Shown here: positions 19,125-59,225 of the stretch, in pieces | How the letters are laid out: every line of letters starts with the position of its first letter | Numbering within the stretch: the first letter of the stretch is position 1 | NCBI GenBank assembly: GCA_026712905.1 | Contig: JAPOPM010000175.1 | Coordinates: forward strand, 4,419-68,418 | Direction of reading: 5' to 3' | Origin: Deltaproteobacteria bacterium | GTDB lineage: Bacteria; Desulfobacterota; Binatia; UBA9968; JAJDTQ01 | Length of the DNA: 64,000 nt | Program-made: the position numbers and the translations under genes | The notes under the pieces: generated by a model | What the model was told of the DNA's origin: nothing | Database searches by the model: none | What the model saw: only the letters and a program-made list of their open reading frames with translations

Positions 19125-19282
19125 CTCGAAACAGCGGGAATCCAGGCGGCCGGGGCGGAGCCAACGCCCCGAAACGTCATTCCCGCGGAAGCGGGAATCC
19201 AGGCGGGGTGGTGGGGCACTACAGCGGCGTTTTTCCGCCTCGCCACCCCTGTATTCCCGCTTCCGCGGGAATGACGATTCGC
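19125..19282. repeat. Composite REP/MITE-like intergenic repeat, copy A (core palindrome GTCATTCCCGCGGAAGCGGGAATCCAGG and its inverted copy)
   Basis: Direct sequence comparison. The same 28-bp core and flanking modules recur at 24.1, 28.7, 46.7-47.0, 50.7, 52.4, 58.2 and 59.0-59.2 kb. Confidence 0.8.
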
Positions 19283-19556
19283 CCGCTGTTCGCGTATTGC
19301 AGTGGAGCCCGCGGAAAGCTATTCTGCCGTCGCACAACGCGGTCGCATGGATCAGGCGGAACCCCGTTGAGTCTAATAAAAGCCTCGGTCTGCCTGACGG
19401 CGGACCCGTGAGAATACCAGAGAAGGCCAAGGCGCAGGTCACGGTTATGTACACCCAGCCGGACGGCCCGTCAGACTCATCTTCAATCTACCAACCACGG
19501 CTCTACCGGCCGCGGCGGGCAGCGCCCACCGCGGGCCGGAGACAGGGGTCCCGCCC

Positions 19557-20873
19557 GTGAAACGCGTGGCGGTCACTCTCGTCGTCCTGGCGGTCGCCGG
19601 CGGCGTGCTCTACTACCTGGGCATCGGGCCTCCGCTCGGCCTCGGGCCGTTTGAAATCGGCGCGGCCAAGGGTAAGCCCGAGCAGGGCAACCGCGGGCAG
19701 GGTAATTCCGGACAGCGCAACTCGGGACAGCGTCGCGGCGGCGGCCGCGCGGTCACCGTCAAGGCCGAGGCGGTTCGGGTGGGGGACGTCGAGGCGACAT
19801 TGAGCTACGTGGGCTCGTTGGCGGCCAACGCGGCGGTCACCATCGCGCCCAAGACCTCGGGCCGGGTCGCCAAGCTGTTCGTCACCGTGGGCGAGCGCGT
19901 CAAGGAGGGCCAACTGCTGGGGCAGCTCGCGAAGGATGAGCTCACGGAGGAGTTGCGCGAGGCGCAGGCGTCGCTTCGGGTGGCCCAAGCCACGCTCAAG
20001 GGCCGCCAGGCGGAACTGGAGAACATCAAACGGCGCCAGCAGAACGTCAAGGTGCTGGCGGGCAAACAACTCGTGTCCCGTGAGGAGGTGAACAACCTGG
20101 AGACCCAGGTGCTGTCCGCCGAGTCCCAGGTGGAGCTGACCAAGGCCCAGATGCTGCAGATGCAGGCGCGACTGGACAACGCCCGCATTCGTCTGCGGCA
20201 CACCGAGGTCCGCTCGCCGTTCGCGGGTCACGTGAGCCGCCGCATGGTGGACCGCGGCGCCCTCGTGAGTGCCAGCACTCCCTTGTTCGAGGTCGTGGAC
20301 ATCGACCGGGTCAAGGTCGGCATTGCCGTGGTGGAGGGGGACTACCGCAAGGTTTCCCTGGGACAGCCGGTCGCCGTCAAGGTCGACGCCTACCCGGACA
20401 AGCGCTTCAACGGCACCATCACGCGCATGTCGCCGGTCCTCGACCCGCAGACGCGCACGGGCGAGGTGGAGATCGAGCTCGACAATCCCGGCGGGGCGCT
20501 CAAGCCCGGCATGTTCGCGCGTACGAACATCGTGGTGGAGCGCAAACGCGGCGTTCTGATGGTGCCGGAAGCCTCGCCGGTGAAGTCCGGCGAGGGGTAC
20601 GGCGTGTTCCGGCTGACGGACGAAGGCAGCAAGGTCGAACGCGTGGAAGTCACGCCGGGCCTGAACAACGGCGGTTGGGTGGAGGTGACGGGAGACCTGC
20701 GCAAGGGGGACCGGGTTGTCACCCTGGGCAGCAGCCTCGTGCGCCACGGCCAGCAAATCCGGGTTGCCGGCGACGGCCCGCGCGCGGGTGCCCGCCGTGG
20801 GCGGCGGGGGGCCGGGCGGGAAGGCCGGGCGGGCGGCGGTCGCGGCCGCGCGGAAAGGACGCAAAACCGATGA
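19557..20873 (+). CDS. Efflux RND transporter periplasmic adaptor subunit (HlyD/AcrA family)
   Basis: 438 aa; signal/TM segment, coiled-coil and beta-barrel membrane-fusion-protein motifs. GTG start; stop overlaps the RND start (ATGA). Confidence 0.8.
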   Translation: MKRVAVTLVVLAVAGGVLYYLGIGPPLGLGPFEIGAAKGKPEQGNRGQGNSGQRNSGQRRGGGRAVTVKAEAVRVGDVEATLSYVGSLAANAAVTIAPKTSGRVAKLFVTVGERVKEGQLLGQLAKDELTEELREAQASLRVAQATLKGRQAELENIKRRQQNVKVLAGKQLVSREEVNNLETQVLSAESQVELTKAQMLQMQARLDNARIRLRHTEVRSPFAGHVSRRMVDRGALVSASTPLFEVVDIDRVKVGIAVVEGDYRKVSLGQPVAVKVDAYPDKRFNGTITRMSPVLDPQTRTGEVEIELDNPGGALKPGMFARTNIVVERKRGVLMVPEASPVKSGEGYGVFRLTDEGSKVERVEVTPGLNNGGWVEVTGDLRKGDRVVTLGSSLVRHGQQIRVAGDGPRAGARRGRRGAGREGRAGGGRGRAERTQNR

Positions 20874-23800
20874 ATCTCACGGCGCTTTGCCTCAGACGTC
20901 CGGTGGCCACCTGCATGGCCGTCATGATCGTCGTGATCCTCGGGGTGATCTCGTTTCTCAAGATCCCGGTGGACCTCTTGCCCGAGATCACCTTCCCCAG
21001 GGTCACCGTCTCCACCACGTACCCCAACGTAGGACCGCTGGAGATGGAGACTCTGGTGACGGTGCCCGTCGAAAAGGCGGTGAGCTCCGTGGAAGGCGTG
21101 GAGGACATCACCTCCGTGTCCGTGGAAGGCCGCAGCCAGGTCCGGGTGGCCTTCGGCTGGAGCAAGGACCTGGAAGTGGCGGTGAGCGACGTGCGCGCAC
21201 GCATCGACCGCATCCGTGACGACCTTCCCCCGGGAGCCGAGGCCCCGGTGGTCTCGAAGTACGACGTCAACGCGTCGCCGATCATGTTCATCGGCGTATC
21301 GGGTCAGATGGACCCGGTGGCGCTGCGGACCTTCGTCGAGCAGGAGGTGCGTTATCGACTGGAACGGGTCGCCGGCGTGGCCGCGGCGGACATCCGTGGC
21401 GGACTGGAGCGCGAGATCCAGGTCCAGCTTTCCCTGGACCGGCTCAAGGCCTTCAATCTCTCGGCGGACCAGGTCATCCGGGCGCTGCGGGCGAGCAACA
21501 TCAACCTGCCGGCCGGTAGCGTCGGCCGGGCGCACCTGGAGGTATCGGTACGGACCCTGGGCGAATTCACCGACCTGAATCAACTGCGCAACACGGTGGT
21601 GGCCACCCGCGACGGCACCCCCATCTACGTCAAGGACCTCGGAGAGGTGAAGGACTCCTTCAAGGACCTGAACCACGCGGTGCGGATCCACGGCTCCCAC
21701 GCCGTGGTCATCTCCCTGCTGCGTCAGCCTTCCGCCAACACCATCACGGTGGTGGACCGCGTGAAGCAGGCCATCGAGGGCATCAATCAGGAACTCCCCA
21801 CCATCAAGGTGACCGTGCTGCGCGAGAATGCGCATTACATTCGCAACGCGGTGGACAACGTGACCCTGGCCGCGGCCTGGGGCGGCATGCTGGCCCTGGC
21901 CGTGCTGTTGTTCTTCCTGCGCAGCCTGCGCAGCACCGTGGTCATCGCCACGGCCATTCCCATCTCCATCGTGGCCACGTTCGCGCTCATGTTCTTCCAG
22001 GGCTTCAGCATCAACATCATCTCCTTCGGCGGCCTCGCCCTGGGGATCGGGCTCTTGCTGGACAACTCCGTGGTGGTGCTGGAGAACATCTACCGGCACC
22101 ACGAGACCGGCACCGACCGCCGGGAGGCCGTGCTCACGGGCACGCGGGAGGTGGCGGGAGCCATCACCGCGTCCACGTTGACCACGGTGGTGGTGTTTCT
22201 GCCGCTGATCTTCGTCCCCGGCTCCGCGGGCATCCTCTTCAAACAGCTCGCGTGGGTGGTGTTCTTCTCGCTCGCGGCCTCCCTGATGGTGGCCCTGACC
22301 GTGGTTCCGGTGCTGGCGCACCATCTCCTGGGGCGGCCGGGCCATGCGGGCCCAGGGGGCTTCCTGTCGCGTCTCATGCGCGCGGGCTCAAGTTCCCAAA
22401 GCGGTCTGGACCATGCCTACCAGGGACTGTTGCGCTGGAGCCTGCGCCATCGCTTCACCGTGGTGGCGGCGGCCGCGGTCCTGCTCTCCAGCAGCCTGTT
22501 CCTCTACCAGGGCATCGGCAGCGAGTTCATGCCCCGCGCCGACGAGGGCAACGTGTTGATCCTCGCGGAAACCGAAGCGGGTTCGAAGATCGAGGAAACG
22601 GACCGCACTTTCCGGCAACTCGAGGCCATCGTGAACCAGGAGGTCACAGAGCCCTACCGGAACTTCACGCACTTCGGCCAGTTCGGCTGGCGCGCCCGGG
22701 GCAAGAACAACGGGCACGTACACATTTGGCTGGGGTCCAGGAATACCCGGGAACGGTCCGACCAGGACATCGTCCGGGCCTTGCGGCGACGGGTCGGCGA
22801 GGTCCCCGGGGTGCGCGCCCGCGTGCGCGCAAGCTCCGGGCTGTGGATCTTCCGGCGCCTGGGATTCACCGACAACGACAACCTCGACGTGAAGGTGCGC
22901 GGTCACGACCTGGGCCAACTTCAGCGCATCTCCCGGCAGGTCAAGAACGCCATGGAGGGGGTTGACGGCATCGCGGGCGTGCGCATCAGCCGGCAGGCCG
23001 GACAGCCCGAAATGGGAATTCGCGTGGATCGGGAGCGCGCGGCGAGCCTCGGCATACCGGTGGAGACCATCGCCCGCGGCCTGCAAGCGAGCCTGGGCGG
23101 CACCCGGGCGACCTTCTACCGCGAGGGCGGCAACGAATACGACGTGCGCGTCCGGCTCGGCGACGACGACCGCGCCGACCTGAGCGCCCTGCTGGATCAG
23201 AGCGTCTCCGACGGCTCGGGCCGGGTGCTGTCGCTCAAGAACCTGGTCCGGCTGGAGGAACGCCGCGGACCCATGTCGATCCAGCGCCTCAACCAGGAGC
23301 GGGTGGTGTCCATCTCCGGCGAAGTCTCGGGACGCGACATGGCCGGGGCCGTGGCCGACCTGCAGGCAGCGCTGGGACAGATCCCGCTGCCGCAAGGCAT
23401 GGTCCTCCAGGTCGGCGGGGACTTCGAGGAACAGCAGAAGGCCTTCGGCGAACTGCGGATCGGCCTGCTCCTGGCCTTGATCATGGTCTACATGGTCATG
23501 GCGGGCCAGTTCGAGCGCCTGATCGATCCGTTCGTGATCATGTTCGCGGTTCCCTTCGCCGCCATCGGCGTACTGGCGTCGCTTCACGTCACCGGCACGA
23601 CCTTCAACATCAACTCCTACATCGGCATCATCCTGCTGGTGGGCATCGTCGTGAACAACGCCATCGTGCTGGTGGACTACATCAACCTCAAGATGCGCGA
23701 GGGAAACCTGAGCGTCGTCGACGCGGTGGTCCTCGCGGGCCGCACCCGTCTGCGACCGATCCTCATGACGACCCTCACCACGGTCCTCGCGCTGGTGCCG

Positions 23801-24034
23801 CTGGCACTGGCATGGGGCGAGGGCGGCGAGATTCAGGCACCCATGGCCCGCGTCGTGATCGGCGGACTGATCACCTCCATGCTGGTGACCCTGGTGCTGA
23901 TCCCGGTGCTCTACGCCACCGTACGCGAACGGGCGTGGCGGAAAGCCGAGGCCCGTGAGGCGGCGGACGCGACCGGGCCAGTACAGGATCCGGCGGCGTT
24001 GCAGTCGGACCGTGTCCGGGAGAACCCGCTGTAG
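20870..24034 (+). CDS. RND efflux transporter permease (AcrB/HAE1 family)
   Basis: About 1054 aa from the internal ATG (MNLTALCLRRPVATCMAV...), with a 12-TM AcrB-like layout. The track ORF's first 65 residues are read-through of the adaptor gene's 3' end. Confidence 0.9.
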   Translation: MNLTALCLRRPVATCMAVMIVVILGVISFLKIPVDLLPEITFPRVTVSTTYPNVGPLEMETLVTVPVEKAVSSVEGVEDITSVSVEGRSQVRVAFGWSKDLEVAVSDVRARIDRIRDDLPPGAEAPVVSKYDVNASPIMFIGVSGQMDPVALRTFVEQEVRYRLERVAGVAAADIRGGLEREIQVQLSLDRLKAFNLSADQVIRALRASNINLPAGSVGRAHLEVSVRTLGEFTDLNQLRNTVVATRDGTPIYVKDLGEVKDSFKDLNHAVRIHGSHAVVISLLRQPSANTITVVDRVKQAIEGINQELPTIKVTVLRENAHYIRNAVDNVTLAAAWGGMLALAVLLFFLRSLRSTVVIATAIPISIVATFALMFFQGFSINIISFGGLALGIGLLLDNSVVVLENIYRHHETGTDRREAVLTGTREVAGAITASTLTTVVVFLPLIFVPGSAGILFKQLAWVVFFSLAASLMVALTVVPVLAHHLLGRPGHAGPGGFLSRLMRAGSSSQSGLDHAYQGLLRWSLRHRFTVVAAAAVLLSSSLFLYQGIGSEFMPRADEGNVLILAETEAGSKIEETDRTFRQLEAIVNQEVTEPYRNFTHFGQFGWRARGKNNGHVHIWLGSRNTRERSDQDIVRALRRRVGEVPGVRARVRASSGLWIFRRLGFTDNDNLDVKVRGHDLGQLQRISRQVKNAMEGVDGIAGVRISRQAGQPEMGIRVDRERAASLGIPVETIARGLQASLGGTRATFYREGGNEYDVRVRLGDDDRADLSALLDQSVSDGSGRVLSLKNLVRLEERRGPMSIQRLNQERVVSISGEVSGRDMAGAVADLQAALGQIPLPQGMVLQVGGDFEEQQKAFGELRIGLLLALIMVYMVMAGQFERLIDPFVIMFAVPFAAIGVLASLHVTGTTFNINSYIGIILLVGIVVNNAIVLVDYINLKMREGNLSVVDAVVLAGRTRLRPILMTTLTTVLALVPLALAWGEGGEIQAPMARVVIGGLITSMLVTLVLIPVLYATVRERAWRKAEAREAADATGPVQDPAALQSDRVRENPL

Positions 24035-24104
24035 GAGCTTGCGCCGTGGAAAGCGGGTCGGTTGAATTGTCATGCCCTGTTGCGCGCGTCATTTCCACGC
24101 AACA

Positions 24105-24305
24105 GACCGTGTCAAGACTCCGCTCGGATGAGAATTGGCACCAATGCCCCGAGTCGTCATTCCCGCGAAAGCTTGCCCTCGACCCCGATCGGGGGCGGGA
24201 ATCCCTGCCCCACCCCGCCTGGATTCCGGCTTCCGCGGGGATGACGTATTCGTCACGTCTCCGCCTGGCGGGTTTTGACACGGCCTGTTCCGCGGGAATG
24301 ACGAA
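24105..24305. repeat. Composite REP/MITE-like repeat, copy B
   Basis: Contains the tgtcaagactccgct module, the gtcattcccgcgaaagc core, the cccgatcgggggcgggaatcc module and an inverted core. Confidence 0.75.
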
Positions 24306-24325
24306 CAAGGGCCTCCCCGTCGATC

Positions 24326-25465
24326 ATGATTGAATCGCTTGGTATCGCCCACCTCTTCGAACTCTCGCGCACGGAAGCGACGCTGGGGTTCTTTACCCCG
24401 CTGGTGATCTTCGCCGCGTTCTTTCTGGCGCAGATGGCCCTGCCGGCGAGGCGGGTTCCCGGCTACGTCATCGATCCGCGGACCGGCGCACCCCGCAGCT
24501 ATCGCCTGAACGGCCTTCTGGTATTCGCCATCGCGCTCGTCGTGTGGGCCTTCGAGCTCACTGGGATGCCGCGCGACTGGTTCTACCGGTCCTCGATTTA
24601 CGCCGTGGCCGGCGGGACCGTCGTCGCCACCCTCGTTACCATCATCGCGGTGTTCAGCCAGCCGCAAGGCAGGGTAAGGAACCCGCTGCTGGCGCTGTGG
24701 TTCGGTCGGGCCCAGGAGCTGGCGTTCCTGAACCAACGCTTCGACGTAAAGATGTACCTCTATGTGGTCGGCGGGGCGATGCTGTCCCTCAACGCCCTTT
24801 CCGGGGCCGTGTACCACTACGAGATCTTTGGCGAAGACTCCAATCCGGGCGTCTTCCTGTACGCGGCGTTCTTCACGTTCTACATACTGGACTACTTCAT
24901 CTTCGAGCGCGTCCAGCTATACACCTACGACCTGATCCATGAGAATCTTGGCTTCAAGTTGTTCTGGGGTTGCTTCGTCGTATACGGGTGGCTGTTCATT
25001 CTCCCGTTGTGGGGCATGGCCGCTTACCCGGATCCGGGATTCTCGCCGGCCTGGACGTATGTCTGGCTCATCGGAACGGCCGCGCTGTTCCTCCTCGGGT
25101 GGGGCATCTCGCGCGGCGCCAACATGCAAAAGTACACGTTCAAGCGTTGGCCCGACCGGAAGTTTCTCGGGCTCATCGAGCCTGTCTTCATCGAGGCCGG
25201 CGACCGCAAGATCCTGTGCAGCGGCCTATGGGGTGTCGCCCGCCACTTCAACTACCTGGGCGAGGGTTTCCTCGCCCTGTCCATCGCCCTGTCGTTCGGC
25301 TACTTCACCAATCCCTGGGCCTGGACCTACTTTGCCTTCATCGTCTCGATGTTCGTCTACCGTCAACGCGATGACGACATGCACTGTGCCGGAAAATACG
25401 GCGCCGACAAGTGGGCGGAGTATCAGGCAAGGGTGAAGTACCGGATCTGTCCGGGCATCTATTGA
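24326..25465 (+). CDS. ERG4/ERG24-family sterol reductase homolog (DHCR7/DHCR14/TM7SF2-like polytopic membrane reductase)
   Basis: C-terminal GLWGVARHFNYLGEG...YRQRDDDMHCAGKYGADKWAEYQARVKYRICPGIY matches the sterol-reductase family signature (RHPNYxGD...RDxxxCxxKYGxxWxxYxxxVPYRIIPxIY). Eight or more predicted TM segments. Confidence 0.7.
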   Translation: MIESLGIAHLFELSRTEATLGFFTPLVIFAAFFLAQMALPARRVPGYVIDPRTGAPRSYRLNGLLVFAIALVVWAFELTGMPRDWFYRSSIYAVAGGTVVATLVTIIAVFSQPQGRVRNPLLALWFGRAQELAFLNQRFDVKMYLYVVGGAMLSLNALSGAVYHYEIFGEDSNPGVFLYAAFFTFYILDYFIFERVQLYTYDLIHENLGFKLFWGCFVVYGWLFILPLWGMAAYPDPGFSPAWTYVWLIGTAALFLLGWGISRGANMQKYTFKRWPDRKFLGLIEPVFIEAGDRKILCSGLWGVARHFNYLGEGFLALSIALSFGYFTNPWAWTYFAFIVSMFVYRQRDDDMHCAGKYGADKWAEYQARVKYRICPGIY

Positions 25466-25496
25466 GAAATTCTTCCCGGCGCGTGCCCGGGCCGCC

Positions 25497-26969: not shown

Positions 26970-26992
26970 CTCCGGCCCCTGGAGCGGCAGGG

Positions 26993-28661: not shown

Positions 28662-28878
28662 ACTCCCGAAACGTCATTCCCGCGGAAGCTTGCCCTCGAC
28701 CCCGATCGGGGGCGGGAATCCAGGAGGGGTGAGGCGGGGAATACGGCCGCTTGGCCCCTCCCCGCCCCTGGATTCCCGCCCCCGATCGGGGTCGAGGGCA
28801 AGCTTTCGCGGGAATGACGTTTCGGGGCGTTGGTACTTCGGGGGTATTGACACAGCTTGTACCGCCGGAATGACGGAG
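28662..28878. repeat. Composite REP/MITE-like repeat, copy C (near-palindromic overall)
   Basis: aaacgtcattcccgcggaagcttgccctcgaccccgatcgggggcgggaatccagg ... cctggattcccgcccccgatcggggtcgagggcaagctttcgcgggaatgacgttt; the two halves are inverted copies. Confidence 0.8.
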
Positions 28879-28953
28879 AGGTGGAATGACCGTCATAAGA
28901 CATCGTTGCCGTGAAACTTGCCCGACCTTCCCGGACGTTATAAGGTCGCTTCC

Positions 28954-30408
28954 ATGTCGACGAATCGGCCTGTCATCCGGGGCGCGGCCACCGCCCTCGC
29001 TCACACCCCGAGCTTGGTCCGCTACGGCTCCAAGCCGTTCCGCGAAGCCCAGGCCCGCCCGGACTTCCTGGCGGAGCTGGCGCGGAACCTGTGGAGCTAC
29101 GACGACGCGTGCCGATACCTGCCGAACCAGGTGTTCATCGGAAGCCGGTCGCCGGCGCGGCTGTGGGAGGTGGAGCAGCCCTGGTTCGACAAGCTGGCCG
29201 ACGCGGACGGCGGCGACCCGCCCTTCGGGCACATCATGGACGAACGGCGTTTCCTCGCCTTGCTGGCCTGCGCGGACCCGTTCAAGCACGTACTGCTGCG
29301 GGAACGGTTCTGGGACGAGATGGGTCCGGTTCTGGAATCCGCGCCGCTCACGGCGCCGCTGACCGCCAGGACGCCGGCGCTGCTCACCGATGCGCAGATG
29401 GACGCCGAGCTGGAGTCCGCCGACAGCCTGCCGCTCTTCGCCGGGGGCGAAGGCGCGCCCGTGGGAGTCGTGAAGACGGGCCACTCCGAGGACGAAGCGC
29501 TCTCCGCATCGGTGCTGCTGGAAAACCTCTGCTGCAAGGTCTCGGGCGCCCTGGCCGTGCACGAACTGCTGAACCACGTCGACGGCCTGGGCCCGGGCGA
29601 CGTCGACCTGGTGCTGAGTTGCTCGGAGGAAGCGGTGGGCGACCGCTACCAGCGCGGCGGCGGCAACCTGGCCAAGGCCATCGCCGAGTTCGCGGGCTGC
29701 GATCTCGGCACCGGCATCGACATCAAGGACTTCTGTGCCGCGCCAATTCCCGCCATGGTCATCGGCGCTTCGCTGGTGGAGAGCGGCGTGTTCGAGAACG
29801 TCGTCGTGGTGGGCGGCGGTTCGCTTCCCAAGCTCGGGATGAAGTCCCTCTACCACCTCGAACAAGGCATCCCGGTGCTGGAGGACGCGCTGTCCGCGGT
29901 GGCCGTGTGGATCGGCCGCGACAACGGCAGCAGCCCGACGGTGAATTTGCAAGCCGTCGGACGCCATCCCGTCAAGGCCGGCGCCGCCCTCGACAAGCAG
30001 TTCCGGGAGCTTGTTCTGGAGCCGCTGAGGCGGCTAGAATGGGGCGTCGACCGGCTCGACCGCGTGGTCACCGAGCTGCACAACCCGGACATCACCGTGG
30101 CCGCCAAGGCCGGCGACGTGGCCGCCCGCAACTACAAGATGATGGCCGCCATGCTCGCCATGGCCAAGGAGATCGACCGCAGCGACATCGCCGGCTTCGC
30201 CCGCGCCAAGGGCGTGTGCGGCTACGCCCCCACTCAAGGGCACATCGCCTCGGGTTTCGTGTACGTGCCCCACGCGCTGCGGGAGATGGCCGCCGGGAAC
30301 ATCCGGAACTGCATGCTGGTGGCCAGGGCGAGCCTATTCCTGGGCCAGATGACCGAGCTGACGGACGGAATGTCGGTGCTGATCGAACGGAACGGCGCGT
30401 CTCAGTAG
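28954..30408 (+). CDS. Glycine/sarcosine/betaine reductase complex component C-like protein (GrdC-like, thiolase/PlsX-like fold)
   Basis: About 484 aa from the ATG (MSTNRPVIRGAATALAHTPSLV...). It lies immediately upstream of grdA. Motifs CSEEAVGDRYQRGGGNLAKAIAEFAGC, NVVVVGGGSLPKLGM, NPDIT, NYKMMAA, APTQGHIASG and SLFLGQMTELTDG resemble what I recall of GrdC. This assignment is made from memory and not verified by alignment. Confidence 0.55.
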   Translation: MSTNRPVIRGAATALAHTPSLVRYGSKPFREAQARPDFLAELARNLWSYDDACRYLPNQVFIGSRSPARLWEVEQPWFDKLADADGGDPPFGHIMDERRFLALLACADPFKHVLLRERFWDEMGPVLESAPLTAPLTARTPALLTDAQMDAELESADSLPLFAGGEGAPVGVVKTGHSEDEALSASVLLENLCCKVSGALAVHELLNHVDGLGPGDVDLVLSCSEEAVGDRYQRGGGNLAKAIAEFAGCDLGTGIDIKDFCAAPIPAMVIGASLVESGVFENVVVVGGGSLPKLGMKSLYHLEQGIPVLEDALSAVAVWIGRDNGSSPTVNLQAVGRHPVKAGAALDKQFRELVLEPLRRLEWGVDRLDRVVTELHNPDITVAAKAGDVAARNYKMMAAMLAMAKEIDRSDIAGFARAKGVCGYAPTQGHIASGFVYVPHALREMAAGNIRNCMLVARASLFLGQMTELTDGMSVLIERNGASQ

Positions 30409-30961: not shown

Positions 30962-30967
30962 ACGTAA

Positions 30968-46674: not shown

Positions 46675-47000
46675 CCTATACGTCATTCCCGCGAAACAGG
46701 CTGTGTCAACAACTCCATCCGAGAGAGGCACCCACGCCCCCAAATCGTCATTCCCGCGGAAGCGGCTGTGTCAAAACGTCGTCCGGACAAGAGTTGGCGC
46801 CAACCCCCCGAATCGTCATTCCCGCGGAAGCGGGAATCCAGGGGCGGGGAGGGGCTGAAACGAGCCTGTTTCCCCGCCTCACCCCTCCTGGATTCCCGCG
46901 TCCGCGGGAATGACGATTTGGGGGCGTGGGTGCCTATTCTCATCCAACCGGAGTTTTGACACAGTCCGGGAAGCGGGAATCCAGGGGCGGGGCGGTGAGC
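46675..47000. repeat. Composite REP/MITE-like repeat cluster, copy D (about 325 bp; three core units plus tgtcaaaac modules)
   Basis: Three copies of gtcattcccgcg[ga]a[ga]c, with a full gtcattcccgcggaagcgggaatccaggggcgggg ... ccctcctggattcccgcgtccgcgggaatgacg inverted pair. Confidence 0.8.
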
Positions 47001-50689: not shown

Positions 50690-50806
50690 ACCCCGAATCC
50701 GTCATTCCCGCGGAAGCGGGAATCCAGGGGTGGAGAGGGGTCCAGCGGCCGTGGGTCCTCCCCTCACCCCGCCTGGATTCCCGCTTTCGCGGGAATGACT
50801 GTCGGG
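50690..50806. repeat. Composite REP/MITE-like repeat, copy E
   Basis: ccgtcattcccgcggaagcgggaatccaggggtgg ... ccgcctggattcccgctttcgcgggaatgac inverted pair. Confidence 0.8.
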
Positions 50807-50849
50807 TGTTCCGCACCAACCGCTACTTGAGCATGCCGGATTCGCAGCC

Positions 50850-52298: not shown

Positions 52299-52339
52299 TC
52301 ACTGCACTTCCACCGAGGTCTCCGTACACCAGACGTCGC

Positions 52340-52516
52340 TTGGACATTGCCTTTGTCATTCCAGGCTATGTCAAGACTCCGCTTGGCCACGCAACGGCAC
52401 CGCCGTACGAGTCGTCATTCCCGCGGAAGCGGGAAGGTGGATTCCCGCTTCCGCGGGAATGACGACTCGGGGCGTTGGTGTCAATTCTCATCCAAGCGGA
52501 GTTTTGACACAGCCTG
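52340..52516. repeat. Composite REP/MITE-like repeat, copy F
   Basis: tgtcaagactccgcttggccacg module, gtcattcccgcggaagcgggaaggtggattcccgcttccgcgggaatgacg inverted pair, gagttttgacacagcc module. Confidence 0.8.
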
Positions 52517-52520
52517 ATTC

Positions 52521-52553
52521 GGCAACAGAATTCTTGCCAAGAATTCTGTTGCC
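52521..52553. promoter_or_regulatory. AT-rich 33-bp perfect palindrome GGCAACAGAATTCTTG-C-CAAGAATTCTGTTGCC (candidate operator)
   Basis: Perfect 16-bp arms around a central C; AT-rich in a 68% GC context. Lies between repeat copy F and the divergent VOC gene, and carries two GAATTC sites. Confidence 0.4.
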
Positions 52554-52624
52554 AAACAGCGGGTTCCTGCCGGACAGAGGGATGCCGCGACGTGACTGCT
52601 GATACGAGATGAAGCCCGTGGAAA

Positions 52625-53044
52625 TCAGCCGCCGCGGATACTCTGCCCGCTCAGCGTCGGCTCATAAAGCATCTGGATCACCACCCCGTCCGGGTCCGCG
52701 CAGTAGAACGAGGCGCTGCCGTCGCGGTGGCGTTTGAAGGGTTTGATGATGGTGACCTGTTTGGCGCGGAACTCGGCTTCGAGTTCCTGGACGCGGTCGA
52801 TGTCGGAGACGATGAAGCCGAGGTGATCGAGGGCGGAGGTGGCGGCGTCGGGAGGCCGGCCGACGGGGGTTTCGTGGAGGGCGAGGTTGTCGGAGCCGGA
52901 GCTCAGGTAGGCGTTTTGGGGGTCGGGCTGCCACACGACCTCCATGCCCAGGATATCGTGGTAGAAGGCTTTGGAGCGCTCGACGTCCTCGACGTTGAGG
53001 GCGATGTGGCGCATTCCCATGAGGCCACTGAGCGCCTTGGGCAT
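52625..53044 (-). CDS. VOC-family protein (glyoxalase/bleomycin resistance/dioxygenase fold)
   Basis: About 139 aa from the internal ATG (MPKALSGLMGMRHIALNVEDVERSKAFYHDILGMEVV...). Confidence 0.65.
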   Translation of the reverse strand: MPKALSGLMGMRHIALNVEDVERSKAFYHDILGMEVVWQPDPQNAYLSSGSDNLALHETPVGRPPDAATSALDHLGFIVSDIDRVQELEAEFRAKQVTIIKPFKRHRDGSASFYCADPDGVVIQMLYEPTLSGQSIRGG

Positions 53045-53181
53045 GGTTTGGTCCTTGCTGGGGTTGGTACGCGAAACCTCGCCGCGTAATCGAGTCGTGG
53101 CCCGCAGGGGCGACCCGCCGGTCGTCCCTGCACGGATCATTTCCATGCCTCGCGGTGGATTCCCGACTCTCGGACAGACTG

Positions 53182-54039
53182 CTAACCGTTCATAGCGTCC
53201 TGGATGGCCCGGGCGGTGTTGAGCCGGGCCAGGTGGGCGCGGAACTCGCCGGACGCGTGGATGTCGTCCAGGGCGTCGGCGCCGTCGGCTACCCCGGCCG
53301 CGGCCGCGGTGATGTTGTCGGTGGTCAGCGCCTTGCCTCGGAGCTGGTCCTCCACCGCGCCGGCGCGGAAGGGCGTGCCGGCCAGGCCGGTGACGCCGAT
53401 GGCGATGTCGGAGCAGGTGTCGCCGTCGGCCTTCAGGCAGACCGCGATGCCGACGATGGCGAAGCCCGAGGCCTTCTGCTTGACCTTGCGATACGCGGCG
53501 CGGGTGCCGGCGGCGGCCACGGGAACGCTCACGCCCGTCAGGATCTCGGAAGCCTCGATGGCGGTGGTCAGGGGGCCGAGGAAGAAGTCCCCGGCGGCCA
53601 CCGAGCGAGAGCCGCCGCTGCTGGTCAGCGTCAGTTCGGCGCCCATGGCGAGCAGCGCCGCGGGCCAGTCCGCGGCCGGGTCGCCGTGGACCACGCTGCC
53701 GCCGATGGTGCCGCGGTTGCGCACCTGGGGGTCGCCGATGCTGCCGGCGGTGAGGGCCAGCAACGCGCCGTTGTTCTTGACGTCGCTGGAGGTCTCCACC
53801 TGATGATGCGTGACCAGGGCGCCGATGCGGAGCGTGCCGCCGTCCACCTGGATCTGCCGCAGGGTGTCCAGCCGCTTGAGGTCGATGACGACCCCGGGCT
53901 GAGCCAGCCTCAGCTTCATCATCGGCAGCAGGCTGTGTCCGCCGGCCATCACCTTGCCGTTGTCGCCGGCCTCCGCCAGGCTGGCGGCCGCGGCCTCGAG
54001 GCTGTCGGGAACGATGTAATCGAAGGCTGCTGGTATCAT
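53182..54039 (-). CDS. FAD-binding medium subunit of molybdenum hydroxylase (CoxM-like), cluster 2
   Basis: 285 aa; MAGGHSLLPMMK FAD-binding motif. Confidence 0.8.
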   Translation of the reverse strand: MIPAAFDYIVPDSLEAAAASLAEAGDNGKVMAGGHSLLPMMKLRLAQPGVVIDLKRLDTLRQIQVDGGTLRIGALVTHHQVETSSDVKNNGALLALTAGSIGDPQVRNRGTIGGSVVHGDPAADWPAALLAMGAELTLTSSGGSRSVAAGDFFLGPLTTAIEASEILTGVSVPVAAAGTRAAYRKVKQKASGFAIVGIAVCLKADGDTCSDIAIGVTGLAGTPFRAGAVEDQLRGKALTTDNITAAAAGVADGADALDDIHASGEFRAHLARLNTARAIQDAMNG

Positions 54040-54073
54040 GATCGGCTCTCGCTATCTTCTTGTTTCGTAGTGG

Positions 54074-56401
54074 TCACTTGTTACCGCCCTGGCACAGGCG
54101 CCAGATCTTCTCGGGCTTGAGCGGCATGTCGATGTGCTTGACGCCGAACGGAGCGAGCGCGTCCACCACCGCGTTGACGATGGACGGCGTGGAGCCGATG
54201 GTGCCGGCCTCGCCCACTCCCTTCACCCCCATGGGGTTCACCGGCGACGGCGTCTCCGTGCGGTCGAACTCCAGGGGCGGCAAGTCTTCGGCGCGGGCCA
54301 CGGCGTAGTCCATCAGGCTGCCGGTGACGAGTTGGCCGTCCTCGTCGTAGATCACCTCTTCCAGGAGCGCCTGTCCCAGGCCCTGGGCGATGCCGCCCTG
54401 CACCTGACCGTCCACGATCATCGGGTTGATGACCTTGCCGCAGTCGTCCACCGCCACGTACTTCTTGATCTCGATCTCGCCGCTCTGAGTGTCCACCTCC
54501 ACCACGCAAATGTGCGTGCCGAAGGGGAACGTGAAGTTGGACGGCTCGAACACCGAGGTCGCCTGAAGCCCCGGCTCCATGCCGGCCGGCAGCTTGGTGG
54601 CCACGTGCGCCTGCAGCGCCACCTCCTGGATGGTGATGCCCTTGTCGGGCACGCCCTTGACCGTGAACTTGCCGTCCTCGAACTCCAGGTCATCGGTGCT
54701 GCATTCCAGCACGTTGGCGGCGATGGCCTCGGCCTTCTCGCGAACTTGCTGCGTCGCCATGTACACCGCGGTGCCGCCCACCGAGATGCCGCGGCTGCCG
54801 AAGGTGCCGATGCCGTTGGGCACCACCGCCGTGTCGCCGTGCTTCACGGCCACGTCCTCGATGGGAACGCCGAGATCGTCGGAGACGATCTGCGCGAAGG
54901 TGGTCTCTTCACCTTGGCCGTGGGGCGAGACGCCCGTCAGCACGGTGGCCTTGCCGGTGAAGTCCATGCGCACGGTGCCGCTCTCCCAGCCGCCCGCCGG
55001 CAGCGCCGCGGATGGCCCCATGGCGCAGATCTCGACATAGGTGGAGAAGCCGATGCCCAGGTGGCGGCCTTCTTCCCGCAGCCGCTTCTGCTCGGCGCGA
55101 AGGTCCTGGTAGCCCACCATCTCCAACGCCCGGTCCAGCGCCGCCTGGTAGTTGCCGCTGTCGTAGGCGAGGCCGGTGGCCACCTGCAGCGGGAAGTCGG
55201 AGGGCTGGGCGAAGTTCTTGCGGCGCAGCTCCACCGGGTCCATGTCCAGCTCCCGCGCGATCAGGTCCAGGGTGCGCTCGATCACCAGGGTGGCTTCGGG
55301 CCTGCCGGCGCCGCGGTAGGCGTCGGTGGCCACCTTGTTGGTGAAGCCGCCGGTGGAGGTGAACTTCAGGGTCGGGATCTTGTACGAACCGCTGATCATC
55401 AGGCCGGTGAGCGGCGGCATTCCCGGCGTCAAGAGCTGGTGATAGGCGCCGGTGTCCAGCAGGCTGTCGTAAGTGACGCCCAGGATCGTGCCGTCCTTCT
55501 TCACCGCGGCTTCCACGGTGCCCACCTGTCCGCGGCCGTGGATCGTCGCCTGCATGTTCTCGCGGCGTCCTTCGATCCACTTCACCGTGCCCTTGAGCTT
55601 CATCGCCAGGTGGGCCAGCAGGCCCTCCTCCCGGTAGACGTTGAGCTTGCAGCCGAAGCCGCCGCCCACCTCCGGGGCGATGATGCGGATGCGGTGTTCC
55701 GGGTAGTTGAGCATGAGCGCCAGCATGGCCCGCAGGAGATGCGGGATCTGCGTAGAGCTCCAGACGGTCAGCTCGTCCTCGCCCGGGAAGTACCGCGCCA
55801 CCACGCCGCGCGTCTCCACCGAGATCGGCGCGAGCCGCTGGTGAATGAACTTCTGCTTGACGACGACGTCCGCCTCGGCGCGGGCCTTGTCCATGTCCCC
55901 GGTGCCGCACTCGAAGGTGAAGGCCTGGTTGCTGTCCCACTGGGAATGGACCAGCGGCGAACCCGGCTGCAGCGCCTTCTCCAGGTCCGAGACCGCCGGC
56001 AGCGGCTCATAGTCCACCTCGATGAGGTCGCGAGCGTCCCGGGCCGTGTACGAGTCCCCGGCCACCGCCACCGCCACCGGCTCCCCGACATACCGCACTT
56101 CGTCCTGGGCCAGCACCGGGTGCGGCGGCGTGCGCAGGGTCGGATTGGCGGCGGCGCAGGGCACCGAGCCCACGCTGTCGCCGATGTCCGCGCCGGTGAC
56201 GACGGTGACGACGCCGGGCAAGGCCCGCGCCGCGTCCGTGTTGATGCCGATGATGCGGGCGTGGGCGTGGGGGCTCCGCAGGATGGCCGCGTGCATCACG
56301 TCCGCCATCCGGAGATCGTCCACGTAGTGCGACAACCCCTGCACCAGGCGGGGGTCTTCACGCCGCTTTACCTTGGTTCCTACAAGCTTGCTTACCGGCA
56401 T
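54074..56401 (-). CDS. Form II CO-dehydrogenase-like molybdopterin large subunit (CoxL form II, active-site loop AYRGAGR)
   Basis: 775 aa; VATDAYRGAGRPE motif is diagnostic of form II CoxL homologs, whose substrate is not established. Confidence 0.85.
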   Translation of the reverse strand: MPVSKLVGTKVKRREDPRLVQGLSHYVDDLRMADVMHAAILRSPHAHARIIGINTDAARALPGVVTVVTGADIGDSVGSVPCAAANPTLRTPPHPVLAQDEVRYVGEPVAVAVAGDSYTARDARDLIEVDYEPLPAVSDLEKALQPGSPLVHSQWDSNQAFTFECGTGDMDKARAEADVVVKQKFIHQRLAPISVETRGVVARYFPGEDELTVWSSTQIPHLLRAMLALMLNYPEHRIRIIAPEVGGGFGCKLNVYREEGLLAHLAMKLKGTVKWIEGRRENMQATIHGRGQVGTVEAAVKKDGTILGVTYDSLLDTGAYHQLLTPGMPPLTGLMISGSYKIPTLKFTSTGGFTNKVATDAYRGAGRPEATLVIERTLDLIARELDMDPVELRRKNFAQPSDFPLQVATGLAYDSGNYQAALDRALEMVGYQDLRAEQKRLREEGRHLGIGFSTYVEICAMGPSAALPAGGWESGTVRMDFTGKATVLTGVSPHGQGEETTFAQIVSDDLGVPIEDVAVKHGDTAVVPNGIGTFGSRGISVGGTAVYMATQQVREKAEAIAANVLECSTDDLEFEDGKFTVKGVPDKGITIQEVALQAHVATKLPAGMEPGLQATSVFEPSNFTFPFGTHICVVEVDTQSGEIEIKKYVAVDDCGKVINPMIVDGQVQGGIAQGLGQALLEEVIYDEDGQLVTGSLMDYAVARAEDLPPLEFDRTETPSPVNPMGVKGVGEAGTIGSTPSIVNAVVDALAPFGVKHIDMPLKPEKIWRLCQGGNK

Positions 56402-56404
56402 GGC

Positions 56405-56887
56405 TTACGTCCCAGCTTTCATTTGTTCGGCGGCTTGCTGCACCGCGTCGACGATATGCTTGTACCCGGTGCACCGGCAGATGTTGCCTTCGAGCCCGTG
56501 GCGGATCTCCTTCTCCGACGGGCTCGGGTTCTCCTGAAGGAGCTGCCGCGTGGCCATGATCATGCCCGGCGTGCAGAAGCCGCACTGGAGCCCGTGACAG
56601 TCCCAGAAGGCTTCCTGTATCGGATGCAGCCCGTCATCGGTGGCGAGGGATTCGATGGTCTCGACCTCGCATCCGTCCACCTGCACGGCCAGCAGGGTGC
56701 AGGATTTCGCCGCCGCGCCGTCCACCATCACCGTGCACGCGCCGCACAGGCTCGTCTCGCAACCGATGTGGGTACCCGTGAGAGCCAGCACGTCCCGCAG
56801 GTAGTGCACCAGCAAGAGGCGCGGCTGGACTTCGTCCGTCCGGCTGACGCCGTTGACTCGAACCTGAATCGTGGTTGTGTTGCTCAT
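56405..56887 (-). CDS. (2Fe-2S)-binding small subunit (CoxS-like), cluster 2
   Basis: 160 aa; CETSLCGAC and CGFCTPG/CRCTGY motifs. Confidence 0.85.
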   Translation of the reverse strand: MSNTTTIQVRVNGVSRTDEVQPRLLLVHYLRDVLALTGTHIGCETSLCGACTVMVDGAAAKSCTLLAVQVDGCEVETIESLATDDGLHPIQEAFWDCHGLQCGFCTPGMIMATRQLLQENPSPSEKEIRHGLEGNICRCTGYKHIVDAVQQAAEQMKAGT

Positions 56888-57179
56888 GATCCTCCGTCCT
56901 CGATGGACCGCGAATATACTATTCCGCCAAACGGCGGGTCAACAAGAAATCAGCCGGTTGCCACGGTTTTGCCGGACACGGTTGCCGCGCCGCACACATA
57001 GGGCGGACACCGGCCACGCGGCTTGCGCGGGAACGAGGACAGGGCGTTCAACCAGAGAGGAGTTTACCTGGCGGTCGGCACCGTCCTTGACGATTCGCGG
57101 ACGCATGTGACAGATTCTTCGCGTTCGCGGCGGAACAAATGTTTCGGCGGAACACGAACCCCCGACCGGGAGGAGAAAC

Positions 57180-58127
57180 ATGAAGGTATTTGTCACTGGC
57201 GCCGGCATGCTCGGATGTCACACGGCCAGGGAGCTGGCGAAGGCGGGGCACTCGGTCCACATCTACGACCTGAGCCCCGATCCCGCTTACGTCGCGGCCA
57301 TCGCCGGGAAGCGGCGCGTGACCACGGTGCGCGGCGACCTCCTGGACCTGCCCAACCTGATGCGCGCCCTGGCGCAAGCCAAGCCGGCCGTGCTGGTGCA
57401 CACCGCCGGACTCATCGGCGGCCAGGTGGAGAACCCGCCCTACCGCGGCTTCCACACCAACACCGTCGGGTCGGTGAACGTCTTCGAGGCCTGTCAGCTC
57501 GCCGGGATCAAGCGGCTGGTGCACGTCAGCACCTTCGGCGTCTACGACTGGGCCAACATCCGCAAGGGACCGGTCACGGAGGACGCCCCGCGCTGGGGCA
57601 ACCGCTTCTATCCCTCCACCAAGGTCGCCAACGAGGTGATGCTGGACGCCTACGAGAACTACTACGGCATGGAGTGCGTGCGCATCCGCCCCAGCGGCGT
57701 GTACGGGCCCGGCCACTACCGCGGCGGCTCCGGCGGCGGCATCGCCATGAACCACTTGGTGCGCGCGTGCGTGGGTGAGGGGCCCGTGGTGCTCGAGAAG
57801 CGCCACGTGGGACCCAACGACTTCATCTACGCCACGGACGTGGGCCGCGGCATCGCCCTGGCCTGCACCGCCAAGGACGCGCCCGGCAAGGCCTTCAACA
57901 TCGCCGTGGGAACGAATTACGGCCCGAAGGACTTCGTCAAGGCGCTGCGCAACCTGTTGCCGGGCCGCGAGATCGCGCTGGCCGAAGGCGCGGATCAAGG
58001 GAAGGGGCGCCCGCGCGTGGACCTGTCCGCGGCCAGGAGCATCCTCGGCTACGAACCGGAATATACGCTGGAGAAAGGGCTCGCGGACTACATGGAGGTG
58101 GTGCGGCGCCACGGCTTCTGGCACTGA
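57180..58127 (+). CDS. NAD-dependent epimerase/dehydratase (extended SDR family)
   Basis: GAGMLG Rossmann motif and YxxxK (YPSTKVANE); GGAGGAGAAAC ribosome-binding site. Confidence 0.8.
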   Translation: MKVFVTGAGMLGCHTARELAKAGHSVHIYDLSPDPAYVAAIAGKRRVTTVRGDLLDLPNLMRALAQAKPAVLVHTAGLIGGQVENPPYRGFHTNTVGSVNVFEACQLAGIKRLVHVSTFGVYDWANIRKGPVTEDAPRWGNRFYPSTKVANEVMLDAYENYYGMECVRIRPSGVYGPGHYRGGSGGGIAMNHLVRACVGEGPVVLEKRHVGPNDFIYATDVGRGIALACTAKDAPGKAFNIAVGTNYGPKDFVKALRNLLPGREIALAEGADQGKGRPRVDLSAARSILGYEPEYTLEKGLADYMEVVRRHGFWH

Positions 58128-58159
58128 GGCCGTGGCGGAGATTGGAGTCTCGCTTTCCA

Positions 58160-58230
58160 GGCCGTGTCAAACAGCGGGACCATACGGGCCATACGAAACG
58201 TCATTCCCGCGGAAGCGGGAATCCAGCCTT
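58160..58230. repeat. REP/MITE-like repeat, short copy G (single core unit plus gtgtcaaacagcgg module)
   Basis: aaacgtcattcccgcggaagcgggaatccag. Confidence 0.7.
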
Positions 58231-58232
58231 GC

Positions 58233-58907
58233 CTACGCTGTCTTTCCCGCGCGGGCGGCGTAGTCCCGCAGGATGCCGTCGACGTCGACTCCCAGCTCGC
58301 GTCCCTCGCGGATGACGCCTTCCTTCTGGCTGCTCCAGCTCTGCACGAACATGTTCTCCAGGAACTCGCGGTTGGCGGGCTCTTCGGCAAAGCGTGCGAG
58401 CTTTTCCGTGACCATGTCCTCGTGCCCTTCCTCGTCGTCCACGATGTCCTTGGCGAGTTGCCGCACCACCGGGTCCGGCGTGTTGTCGCGCATGTGCTCC
58501 ATGAACACCACCGCGGACTTCTCGGCGATGTTGCACAAGCGGAACGAGCGCACGTCGCCGGTGAGGAACTGGCCGAAGTAGCCGTCGTAGGCCGCCACGG
58601 GAACATCGTCCGCGGCGCCGCGGCTGTCGAGGTAATCCCTGATCAGCGCGTGGTGCTTGTACTCGTCCGCCGCCTGCTCCGCCACGTGGGCGCGCTCGTG
58701 GGGCTCCAACTCGTCGTACTGCAACAGCGCCTTGGTGAACGCCACGGCGTGGGCCAGCTCCTTCTTGGACTGGCGCTGCATCAGCGCGACGAACTCCGGC
58801 GAGCGCGGGTCCAGCTCGGCCAGCGCCTTGCGGATGGCGATGACGGGCCCTTCCAGCTCATCGTGGTAGCGGCTCCACAGCGATTCGACGAATTCCCTTC
58901 CGGTCAT
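58233..58907 (-). CDS. Ferritin-like diiron-carboxylate domain protein (function unknown)
   Basis: 224 aa; two ExxH motifs (EQAADEYKHH, DDEEGHEDM) in predicted helical segments. No closer family recognised. Confidence 0.5.
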   Translation of the reverse strand: MTGREFVESLWSRYHDELEGPVIAIRKALAELDPRSPEFVALMQRQSKKELAHAVAFTKALLQYDELEPHERAHVAEQAADEYKHHALIRDYLDSRGAADDVPVAAYDGYFGQFLTGDVRSFRLCNIAEKSAVVFMEHMRDNTPDPVVRQLAKDIVDDEEGHEDMVTEKLARFAEEPANREFLENMFVQSWSSQKEGVIREGRELGVDVDGILRDYAARAGKTA

Positions 58908-58954
58908 GACATCACTCCTCCGCTTCGGGTTGACTCAAACTACCTGCCGGGCCG

Positions 58955-59225
58955 TTGCGGTGTCAATTGGGGATGCCTCGGGCAGGACCCCGCCCCGCTC
59001 TTGGATTCCCGCTTTCGCGGGTGTGTCAAGACTCCGCTTGGCCACGAGACGGCACCGCCCTACGGATCGTCATTCCCGCGGAAGCGGGAATCCAGGGGTG
59101 GTGGTGGGGGTTAAACGAGGCGGTTTCCCCGCCTCACCCCTCCTGGATTCCCGCTTCCGCGGGAATGACGATCCGTAGAATCCCGCCTCACGAGTCTTGG
59201 CACAGCCGCTTCCACCGGGATGACG
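58955..59225. repeat. Composite REP/MITE-like repeat cluster, copy H
   Basis: tggattcccgctttcgcggg, tgtgtcaagactccgcttggccacg, gtcattcccgcggaagcgggaatccaggggtggtggtggggg ... cccctcctggattcccgcttccgcgggaatgacg. Confidence 0.8.

Follow-up and report, generated by a model that had tools for sequence, protein, structure and literature searches.

What are the palindromic repeats that recur in eight intergenic arrays (A to H, between positions 19131 and 59222) of a 64-kb stretch of bacterial DNA, here called the window, and what keeps them there? An earlier note on this DNA had treated them as a composite family, likened to repetitive extragenic palindromes (REPs) and miniature inverted-repeat transposable elements (MITEs), that mixes three modules and is distinct from the dRS3 repeats of Neisseria. 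Judged by the sequence of their core, the window repeats are instead members of the known hairpin family described as the Neisseria Transformation Sequence (NTS), the CGTC-1 REP and dRS3, and not a new class. It is quite likely that the cores are copies of an NTS/Ssn-related motif, serving as hairpin sites for an Ssn nuclease, that expanded in a sponge-associated lineage. New here are the host, the density of the repeats, their lineage-specific packaging into a nested palindrome of ~225 bp and their absence from congeners.

Identity and distribution of the core motif

The core reads CGTCATTCCCGCG(G/A)AAGCGGGAATCCAG and agrees at 27 to 28 of 28 positions with the NTS, an oriented 28-nt element (CGTCATTCCCGCGMAVGCGGGAATCYRG) containing the older dRS3 palindrome ATTCCC-N8-GGGAAT (Chenal et al., Nat Commun 2025, PMC11893778), a pattern that the 20-bp core fits exactly. 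In the window, the 20-mer ATTCCCGCGRAAGCGGGAAT has 13 matches at two or fewer mismatches, compared to none in 100 dinucleotide-preserving shuffles, and the published NTS has 8 copies at one mismatch or fewer and 11 to 12 at three or fewer. Three further copies, listed in the earlier note as a third module, are NTSs whose loop is enlarged by an internal CCCCGATCGGGG hairpin. The commonest single mismatch is a G at the M position, the first position of the loop, which yields a GGAA loop; the nucleotides reported to be critical for Ssn (the stem, the 3 nt preceding the palindrome and the C that follows it) are intact. The published degenerate SRM pattern matches only one window copy, the one with a GAAA loop, and is unsuitable for the GGAA-loop variant because its H position excludes GGAA.

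Parsed as CGTC-ATTCCCGC-GGAA-GCGGGAAT, the core also has the CGTC tag, the 8-bp stem starting AT and the 4-nt loop that define the CGTC-1 REPs, a family of CGTC-tagged REPs catalogued in 2013 (Di Nocera, De Gregorio, Rocco, BMC Genomics, PMC3733652). These REPs mostly form head-to-head dimers with structured spacers of 20-100 bp, lie between unidirectional or convergent open reading frames (ORFs), and equal dRS3 in Neisseria and RPE-6 in Rickettsia; in no species of that survey did CGTC repeats flank a gene for the tyrosine transposase RAYT (PMC3733652). Since the CGTC-1 descriptors all fit the window repeats, the separation from dRS3 drawn in the earlier note was wrong. The GC richness of this genome, offered there as its ground, is irrelevant to family identity because the exact 27-mer GTCATTCCCGCGRAAGCGGGAATCCAG is shared across many phyla.

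This 27-mer was found at a minimum of 120 loci of GTDB species representatives. Among the matches listed, its hosts are Alpha-, Beta-, Gamma- and Deltaproteobacteria, Bacteroidetes, Chloroflexi, Planctomycetes, Nitrospirae, Acidobacteria, Gemmatimonadetes, Actinomycetes, many lineages of the candidate phyla radiation and a Rickettsia endosymbiont; the 132 copies in these matches include 75 with an inverted partner 4-127 bp downstream and 9 with one upstream. The 27-mer is also present on 11 IMG/VR contigs, and sequence conservation ends exactly at its borders. Translation of the core produces the SFPRKRESRGGE-type peptides of the spurious ORFs that had been pointed out in the arrays; the peptides of these ORFs include SFPRKRES, VIPAEAGIQ and LDSRFRGND.

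Hairpin folding and covariation of the stem

As single-stranded DNA (ssDNA), the 28-mer folds into the proposed 8-bp stem with a GGAA loop (-9 kcal/mol, z -4.5), leaving unpaired, oriented flanks, namely a CGTC head and a C-CAG tail. Paired cores, or doublets, form the long hairpins that had been anticipated, at -45 to -52 kcal/mol (z about -10); the loop-expanded doublet at 28.67-28.82 kb reaches -89.6 kcal/mol and the element at 52.36-52.52 kb reaches -72.8 kcal/mol. Across 49 distinct cross-phylum variants, 96.7% of stem cells are paired and five of the eight pairs show compensatory double changes, a degree of covariation reached by 0 of 500 shuffles, and the hairpin is therefore supported. 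The compensatory variants of the stem partners are TTCCCGC/GCGGGAA, CCCCCGC/GCGGGGG, TCCCCGC/GCGGGGA, TGCCCGC/GCGGGCA and TTCCGGC/GCCGGAA, and both the C following the stem and the unpaired GTC head hardly change across the variants. The comparison with Rfam models suggested earlier gave no matches for the arrays at the gathering threshold (Rfam 15) and only sub-threshold generic hairpins (miRNA precursor); no tRNAs were found.

A nested palindrome of about 225 bp

Repeat-carrying contigs were collected with a stringent 35-nt version of the motif, which matched at least 116 further metagenome contig stretches (~805 kb, non-redundant), in line with the earlier view of a REP-like dispersed family and not a local duplication. 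Among the matches listed, to which the counts on these contigs refer throughout, the contigs come mostly from sponge samples that also contain the window and have ~65% G+C; ten of the stretches fall below 62% G+C and need not belong to the window organism. Together with the window (869 kb in all), they hold 200 NTS copies at three or fewer mismatches, or ~2.3 per 10 kb, and 144 of these make up 72 head-to-head doublets with a sharply peaked spacer length (mode 46 bp, range 40-51). The inverted pairing noted earlier is thus borne out, with a usual spacing of 46 bp in place of 40-70 bp; the copy at 58.2 kb is a single NTS, and the pair at 52.4 kb is nearly abutting.

Alignment of 68 doublets with their flanks gave a single consensus element of ~225 bp, in which a half-NTS, a repeat sequence (RS), an NTS, a 46-bp spacer, an inverted NTS, RS′ and half-NTS′ follow one another. 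The consensus 5′ half-NTS is GTCATTCCCGCGrAAca; the RS (GGCtGTGtCAaaaC...GGCaccaaCcCccCGAatC, ~52 bp) comes next, followed by the full NTS, a palindromic spacer whose ends are G-rich/C-rich complements of each other, and the mirror image of all parts. What had been read as a mixture of three modules is therefore an ordered set of parts of one nested palindrome: the second module (GGCTGTGTCAARACTCC...), with 10 to 11 window occurrences, every one inside an array, is contained in the RS, and the third is the loop-expanded NTS. The most alike whole elements are 85-95% identical over 215-240 bp, and whole-element similarity stops 60-75 bp outside each NTS, that is, at the outer half-NTS. The same composite was found on contigs of metagenome-assembled genomes (MAGs) binned as Gemmatimonadetes and Binatia. 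Target-site duplications at the element ends were seen in 3 of 18 complete elements, compared to 1.5 expected by chance, and the flanks beyond the ends are often still mutually complementary, so that palindromy continues outward. The MITE-like character proposed earlier is therefore not borne out; because neither target-site duplications beyond chance nor, in ~2 Mb of NTS loci, a RAYT were found, the element is taken to be neither a classical MITE nor a REPIN, the REP doublet mobilized by RAYT.

The eight arrays were located on a gene map of the window based on G+C at third codon positions (GC3), Pfam and NCBIfam matches and the public gene calls of the same contig (k141_177364, ENA ERZ27241788). 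Their positions and contents agree with the earlier description, as does their intergenic location, all eight lying between GC3-supported genes:

Array A, 19131-19279, unstranded: downstream of gene 18469-19107 (+); orphan 3′ half-NTS 19134-19146, pre-NTS box 19157-19175, NTS(+) 19175-19202, 46-bp G-rich/C-rich palindromic spacer, NTS(-) 19249-19276 with 1 mismatch.
Array B, 24088-24302, unstranded: flanked by the RND pump gene (ends 24034) and, at 24326, the ERG4-like gene; degenerate outer half-NTS 24088-24099, RS 24105-24154, loop-expanded NTS(+) 24155-24206, NTS(-) 24219-24246 with 3 mismatches, RS′ 24247-24285, outer half-NTS′ 24291-24302.
Array C, 28672-28874, unstranded: divergent region between the amidohydrolase gene (-) and grdC-beta (+); NTS(+) 28672-28723 and NTS(-) 28768-28819, both loop-expanded, RS′ 28819-28857, outer half-NTS′ 28863-28874.
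Array D, 46682-46997, unstranded: convergent LLM oxidoreductase/radA intergenic region; tandem (half-NTS + RS) units 46682-46745 and 46747-46813, NTS(+) 46814-46841, 46-bp spacer, NTS(-) 46888-46915, RS′ 46916-46966, orphan 3′ half-NTS 46973-46985.
Array E, 50700-50800, unstranded: bare doublet in the hemE/hemY intergenic region; NTS(+) 50700-50727, 45-bp spacer, NTS(-) 50773-50800 with a GAAA loop.
Array F, 52355-52516, unstranded: between convergent hemY and a glyoxalase-family gene, folding as a whole at -72.8 kcal/mol; RS 52364-52412, 3′-truncated NTS(+) 52413-52436 abutting NTS(-) 52437-52464, RS′ 52464-52514.
Array G, 58164-58226, plus strand: between the epimerase gene and the convergent ferritin-like gene; upstream RS remnant GTGTCAAACAGCGGG...ACGAAAC, single NTS(+) 58199-58226.
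Array H, 58988-59222, unstranded: upstream of the ferritin-like gene (-) and the CMD-family gene (+); partial NTS(-) 58997-59024, RS 59019-59067, NTS(+) 59068-59095, 47-bp spacer, NTS(-) 59143-59170, RS′ 59171-59207, degenerate outer half-NTS′ about 59206-59222.

Truncation and the tandem duplication of (half-NTS + RS) units account for the differences among arrays; two of these units are present in array D. In a related genome (contig L125, about 4040-4126 and 4226-4270), four to five tandem 21-bp half-NTS units (GTCATTCCCGCGACTCTCCCC) stand beside a doublet and mirrored GGGAATGACGGAGGAAGGGGC units on its opposite side, a symmetric growth suggesting that duplication acts on the hairpin or cruciform form.

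A separate observation concerns assembly. The first 159 positions of contig L002 are an inverted copy of array D (window 46701-46855) from the same strain, forming a fold-back at the contig start, and the assembly therefore broke or became chimeric at the array D hairpin. NTS doublets probably account for contig ends in these assemblies more generally.

Placement relative to genes

Across 84 arrays, 28 lie between convergent, 48 between tandem and 8 between divergent genes, so that 90% are downstream of at least one gene. Arrays are placed near gene 3′ ends, with a median distance from the stop codon of ~94 bp; 82 of the 84 are clear of ORF 3′ ends, and the other two are in contact with an ORF end. 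Neither T-tracts nor terminator-like calls were found at any array. Among the proteins encoded next to NTSs, no family recurs except Ssn, the neighbours belonging otherwise to housekeeping families, and the genes with arrays on both sides are ordinary metabolic genes.

Several other identities were considered and rejected: intrinsic terminators, given the missing T-tracts; a CRISPR array, given that the repeats are inverted and not direct, that the spacers are homologous and that there are no cas genes; hammerhead-like ribozymes, whose core motif is absent; and integron attC sites, as there are no GTTRRRY boxes.

Host, relatives and constraint on the core

Proteins of the window are identical to the NCBI MAG proteins MCY4488368-75. 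Many of the same-repeat contigs belong to MKWU01 (Aplysina aerophoba sponge metagenome), one relative comes from a Petrosia ficiformis metagenome, and the nearest named genome is Candidatus Binatia; the host is probably a sponge-associated, Binatia-like bacterium. From its relatives, we infer a genome of roughly 4-5 Mb, which at a density of ~2.3 NTS per 10 kb would hold on the order of 1,000 NTSs.

The presence of the family is lineage specific. Eight syntenic contigs from related species share the gene order of the window, with 84-86% nucleotide identity in radA, and no NTS at five or fewer mismatches was found in their ~160 kb; the part of the window syntenic with these NTS-free relatives carries five arrays in 21 kb. 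Gain or expansion of the family was thus confined to part of the clade. At the site of array D, the LLM-radA spacer is 1-25 bp in L260 and L264, and in L261 and L262 (about 300-330 bp) it holds unrelated palindromic repeats. The hemE-hemY spacer, 231 bp in the window, is NTS-free and 62-80 bp long in the seven syntenic contigs that cover it. Mapping of filled against empty junctions in these relatives did not place the element boundaries because intergenic DNA is too diverged, and between samples nearly all contigs of the window population match at 99.9-100% identity, without indels at the arrays.

The core is more conserved than its surroundings. Cores that had not been used to recruit loci number 18, 36, 7 and 2 at 0, 1, 2 and 3 mismatches from the consensus, with a thin tail above. 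At an orthologous intergenic site of L217 (window population) and L125 ('Candidatus Binatia'), both NTSs are identical at 27 of 27 positions, compared to 28 of 47 in the spacer, about 52% in the immediate flanks and 86.5% in adjacent coding DNA; if the cores had evolved like the coding flanks, the chance of 54/54 identity would be ~4e-4. Selection or conversion therefore appears to keep the core constant as the remainder drifts.

Other features were noted in the same relatives. The palindromic repeat families of the L261/L262 radA-LLM region and of the L260 epimerase-ferritin spacer consist of GCTCAGGACGAACGG-type and GGGGCGACCGGCGGTCGCCCC-type hairpins, and L267 carries an IS1595 transposase gene and an arylsulfotransferase gene at the array D site. 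The LLM-radA convergent-gene spacer seems to be a hot spot for several kinds of insertion.

The Ssn nuclease and the proposed role of the repeats

SsnA is a single-domain GIY-YIG nuclease of ~100 aa (cd10448) that binds and cuts the NTS as ssDNA only, a few nucleotides 5′ of the motif and on the forward strand alone, sparing double-stranded DNA and RNA (PMC11893778). In many bacteria, ssn genes are flanked by such motifs, and the Ssn-NTS pair lowers transformation of N. meningitidis by NTS-containing DNA; binding and cleavage have been demonstrated for the Neisseria and Wolbachia homologs only (PMC11893778). All five GIY-YIG (PF01541) ssn genes inspected here in other genomes, three of them met by chance in NTS loci and two fetched in addition, are flanked by NTS-like hairpins.

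Under the proposed mechanism, each core would fold into its hairpin (8-bp stem, 4-nt loop) whenever the DNA becomes single-stranded, as in uptake, conjugation, replication or repair, with the unpaired CGTC head and C-CAG tail giving the hairpin its orientation. A predicted Ssn-type nuclease of the window organism would recognize these sites in that state. Because Ssn cleavage is strand specific, doublets arranged head to head, with CGTC heads outside, may exist to put a cleavable forward copy on both strands. The family would have expanded after the lineage split from congeners that lack it, most likely having arrived with, and being maintained by, an ssn gene elsewhere in the genome as an NTS-ssn-NTS cassette; copies may have multiplied via nicking and repair or hairpin-promoted template switching, and arrays would grow by tandem duplication of (half-NTS + RS) units, as in Neisseria.

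Several points weigh against this role. No Ssn homolog was found by tblastn and jackhmmer in the window or in the ~805 kb of same-repeat contigs, and none in the relatives' loci; ssn is normally NTS-flanked, and the contigs sampled had been selected for carrying an NTS. The absence is not decisive because the genome is probably 4-5 Mb and perhaps 15-20% of it was sampled. A database search for Ssn returned at least 7,998 homologs, too many to pick that of the window organism. The dominant GGAA loop is one mismatch off the Neisseria NTS definition and outside the published SRM pattern. In part, the strong conservation of the core reflects ascertainment, since it was by similarity to the core that copies were found. 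Finally, how NTS copies multiply is unexplained in both the 2013 and the 2025 studies (PMC3733652, PMC11893778).

Further observations concern ssn genes and NTS copies elsewhere. Two ssn candidates with matching source patterns were rejected, since they come from other environments. On L254 (3001-3291), and likewise on L255 and L256, an Ssn-type GIY-YIG gene with three flanking NTSs lies between the hsdR and hsdS genes of a type I restriction-modification operon; these contigs derive from three metagenome samples, one labelled hydrothermal vent metagenome. The IMG/VR contigs L007, L012, L013 and L014, classed as viral, carry exact NTS copies. Three of these four share one gene block beside the NTS, and L014 encodes an NTS-flanked Ssn homolog.

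Alternative explanations

The position of the arrays, mostly downstream of genes, and the high stability of their hairpins would also suit a role in RNA, as transcript 3′-end stabilizers, attenuators or RNase sites, instead of or besides one in ssDNA, and RNA roles have been proposed for both CGTC and GTAG REPs (PMC3733652). However, a generic hairpin leaves the cross-phylum conservation of the unpaired CGTC head and CCAG tail unexplained, SsnA is inactive on RNA (PMC11893778), arrays C and H lie in divergent promoter regions, and neither T-tracts or terminator-like calls nor an Rfam family match were found at the arrays, which makes an RNA-level role unlikely. Similarly improbable is that the arrays are orphans, the relic of a lost ssn, with copies persisting by gene conversion and hairpin-driven slippage without a cognate protein. 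The lack of ssn in ~0.87 Mb of NTS-rich population sequence would fit such a history, as would the lack of any element pair >95% identical and hence of any sign of very recent copying. Yet cores are nearly invariant while spacers and RS drift, the 54/54 core identity beside a 13.5% coding-flank difference (~4e-4) points to ongoing constraint, and the search for ssn covered ~15-20% of the genome.

The remaining alternatives invoke mobile-element enzymes. Doublets copied as REPINs by a single-copy HUH tyrosine transposase (RAYT) encoded elsewhere would account for the architecture of two inverted REP-like hairpins with a short spacer forming a long composite hairpin, for the intergenic placement, and for persistence at an orthologous site across species, which resembles vertically inherited REPIN populations. 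This is nevertheless very unlikely: the head is CGTC and not the RAYT-recognized GTAG, CGTC repeats flanked no RAYT in any species surveyed in 2013 (PMC3733652), ssn genes are the ones flanked by NTSs (5/5), and a core identical across phyla contrasts with the species-specific REPs of RAYT systems; a jackhmmer search of ~2 Mb of NTS loci with IS200 TnpA and E. coli RAYT also found nothing, a weak negative. A classical MITE, in which the second module (GGCTGTGTCAA...TTGACACAGCC) is the terminal inverted repeat of a deleted insertion sequence (IS) with a DDE transposase that carried or targeted NTSs, is just as hard to credit. Array F is indeed a clean 150-bp inverted-repeat element with module-2 ends, and module 2 appears inside split NTSs in arrays D and H, but palindromy runs past it into a CCCCGAAWC box and the outer half-NTS, which places module 2 inside the element and not at its terminus; it was not found apart from NTSs in the window, no recurrent transposase lies near the arrays, and target-site duplications are close to the chance level given above (3/18 vs 1.5). 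Least probable of all is that the palindromes are attachment sites for an IS110/Piv-type recombinase, as dRS3 is for Neisseria filamentous prophages: the dRS3 part is a documented target of the Nf-phage recombinase, but no prophage or IS110-like gene interrupts or adjoins arrays in the window or the inspected loci, and the conserved asymmetric flanks and doublet geometry would be unexplained.

Implications of a probable link to Ssn

With recognition by an Ssn as the preferred reading, a bolder extension may be put forward tentatively, although it is doubtful: the ~225-bp palindrome could be a replicating non-coding element, a GIY-YIG counterpart of REPINs, copied in one piece via Ssn-made ssDNA nicks at the NTS heads, with tandem half-NTS units as footprints. 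If so, the window would document a recent invasion of one sponge-symbiont lineage and would offer a first handle on how NTS/CGTC repeats multiply.

The repeats are among the densest NTS populations seen and belong to an uncultured sponge symbiont, in agreement with the reported enrichment of Ssn motifs in host-associated bacteria (PMC11893778). NTS-rich and NTS-free relatives bracket a recent expansion, making this clade a good natural system in which to study the spread of such repeats and their possible gating of the uptake or recombination of foreign ssDNA. For annotation, the arrays should be masked as NTS/CGTC-1 repeats, since they create spurious ORFs and break assemblies.

Other features of the window

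Just outside array F, in the convergent spacer between hemY and the glyoxalase-family gene, a perfect palindrome with 16-bp arms (GGCAACAGAATTCTTG-C-CAAGAATTCTGTTGCC) occupies 52521-52553. It occurs once in all the DNA collected, the relative L266 shows a partial match at the orthologous position, and the palindrome may be an operator or a bidirectional terminator stem. The gene at 58233-58907 (-), with NTS arrays on both sides, encodes a 224-aa product with weak, sub-threshold ferritin/rubrerythrin/EncB-like matches only; NTS-free relatives carry a homolog in the corresponding position. From 28918-30408 onward lies a glycine/sarcosine/betaine reductase cluster (component C beta match, 508 bits), which is unusual for a sponge symbiont of 66% G+C and presumably aerobic niche.

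Comparison with known systems

Correia elements (CREE), which the earlier note had invoked as a resemblance, are likewise small intergenic inverted-repeat elements but have no sequence similarity to the window family; they possess terminal inverted repeats of the 26-nt class and TA duplications, and no duplication was found in the window family. The REPIN-RAYT system (Bertels and Rainey 2011) shares inverted doublets with long hairpins, high copy number, intergenic placement and persistence at orthologous sites. It differs in its GTAG head, compared to CGTC here, where no RAYT was found and the core is identical across phyla.

The Neisseria dRS3 repeats and the Neisseria intergenic mosaic elements (NIMEs) built from them (Parkhill 2000; Bentley 2007, PMC1797815) share the ATTCCC-N8-GGGAAT core, a palindrome alternating with an RS of 50-60 bp, and variation in unit number. 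NIMEs are recognized by palindromes flanking 50-150-bp repeats in intergenic arrays, and arrays B, D, F and H likewise alternate NTS or half-NTS with an RS of ~50 bp; as the name is neisserial, the window family is NIME-like and not a NIME, NIMEs having been regarded as Neisseria-specific (PMC1797815). Neisseria has >100 RS families in long arrays, whereas the window has a single RS family arranged symmetrically around the doublet.

The CGTC-1 REPs (PMC3733652) have in common with the window repeats the CGTC head, stem, loop, head-to-head dimers, structured spacers and placement relative to ORFs, as well as the lack of a RAYT; the survey listed five phyla, left out the window lineage and named no associated protein. 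In H. neapolitanus, dimers lie inside a 41-bp palindrome (PMC3733652) that resembles the window RS palindrome in arrangement and is unrelated to it in sequence. The NTS/SRM-Ssn system (PMC11893778) shares the oriented 28-nt sequence itself (27-28/28), the hairpin, the intergenic clustering and the enrichment in host-associated bacteria, and the window differs from it in a GGAA loop in place of MAV, in the ~225-bp nested palindrome with its lineage-specific RS, and in its host, a Binatia-like bacterium associated with sponges.

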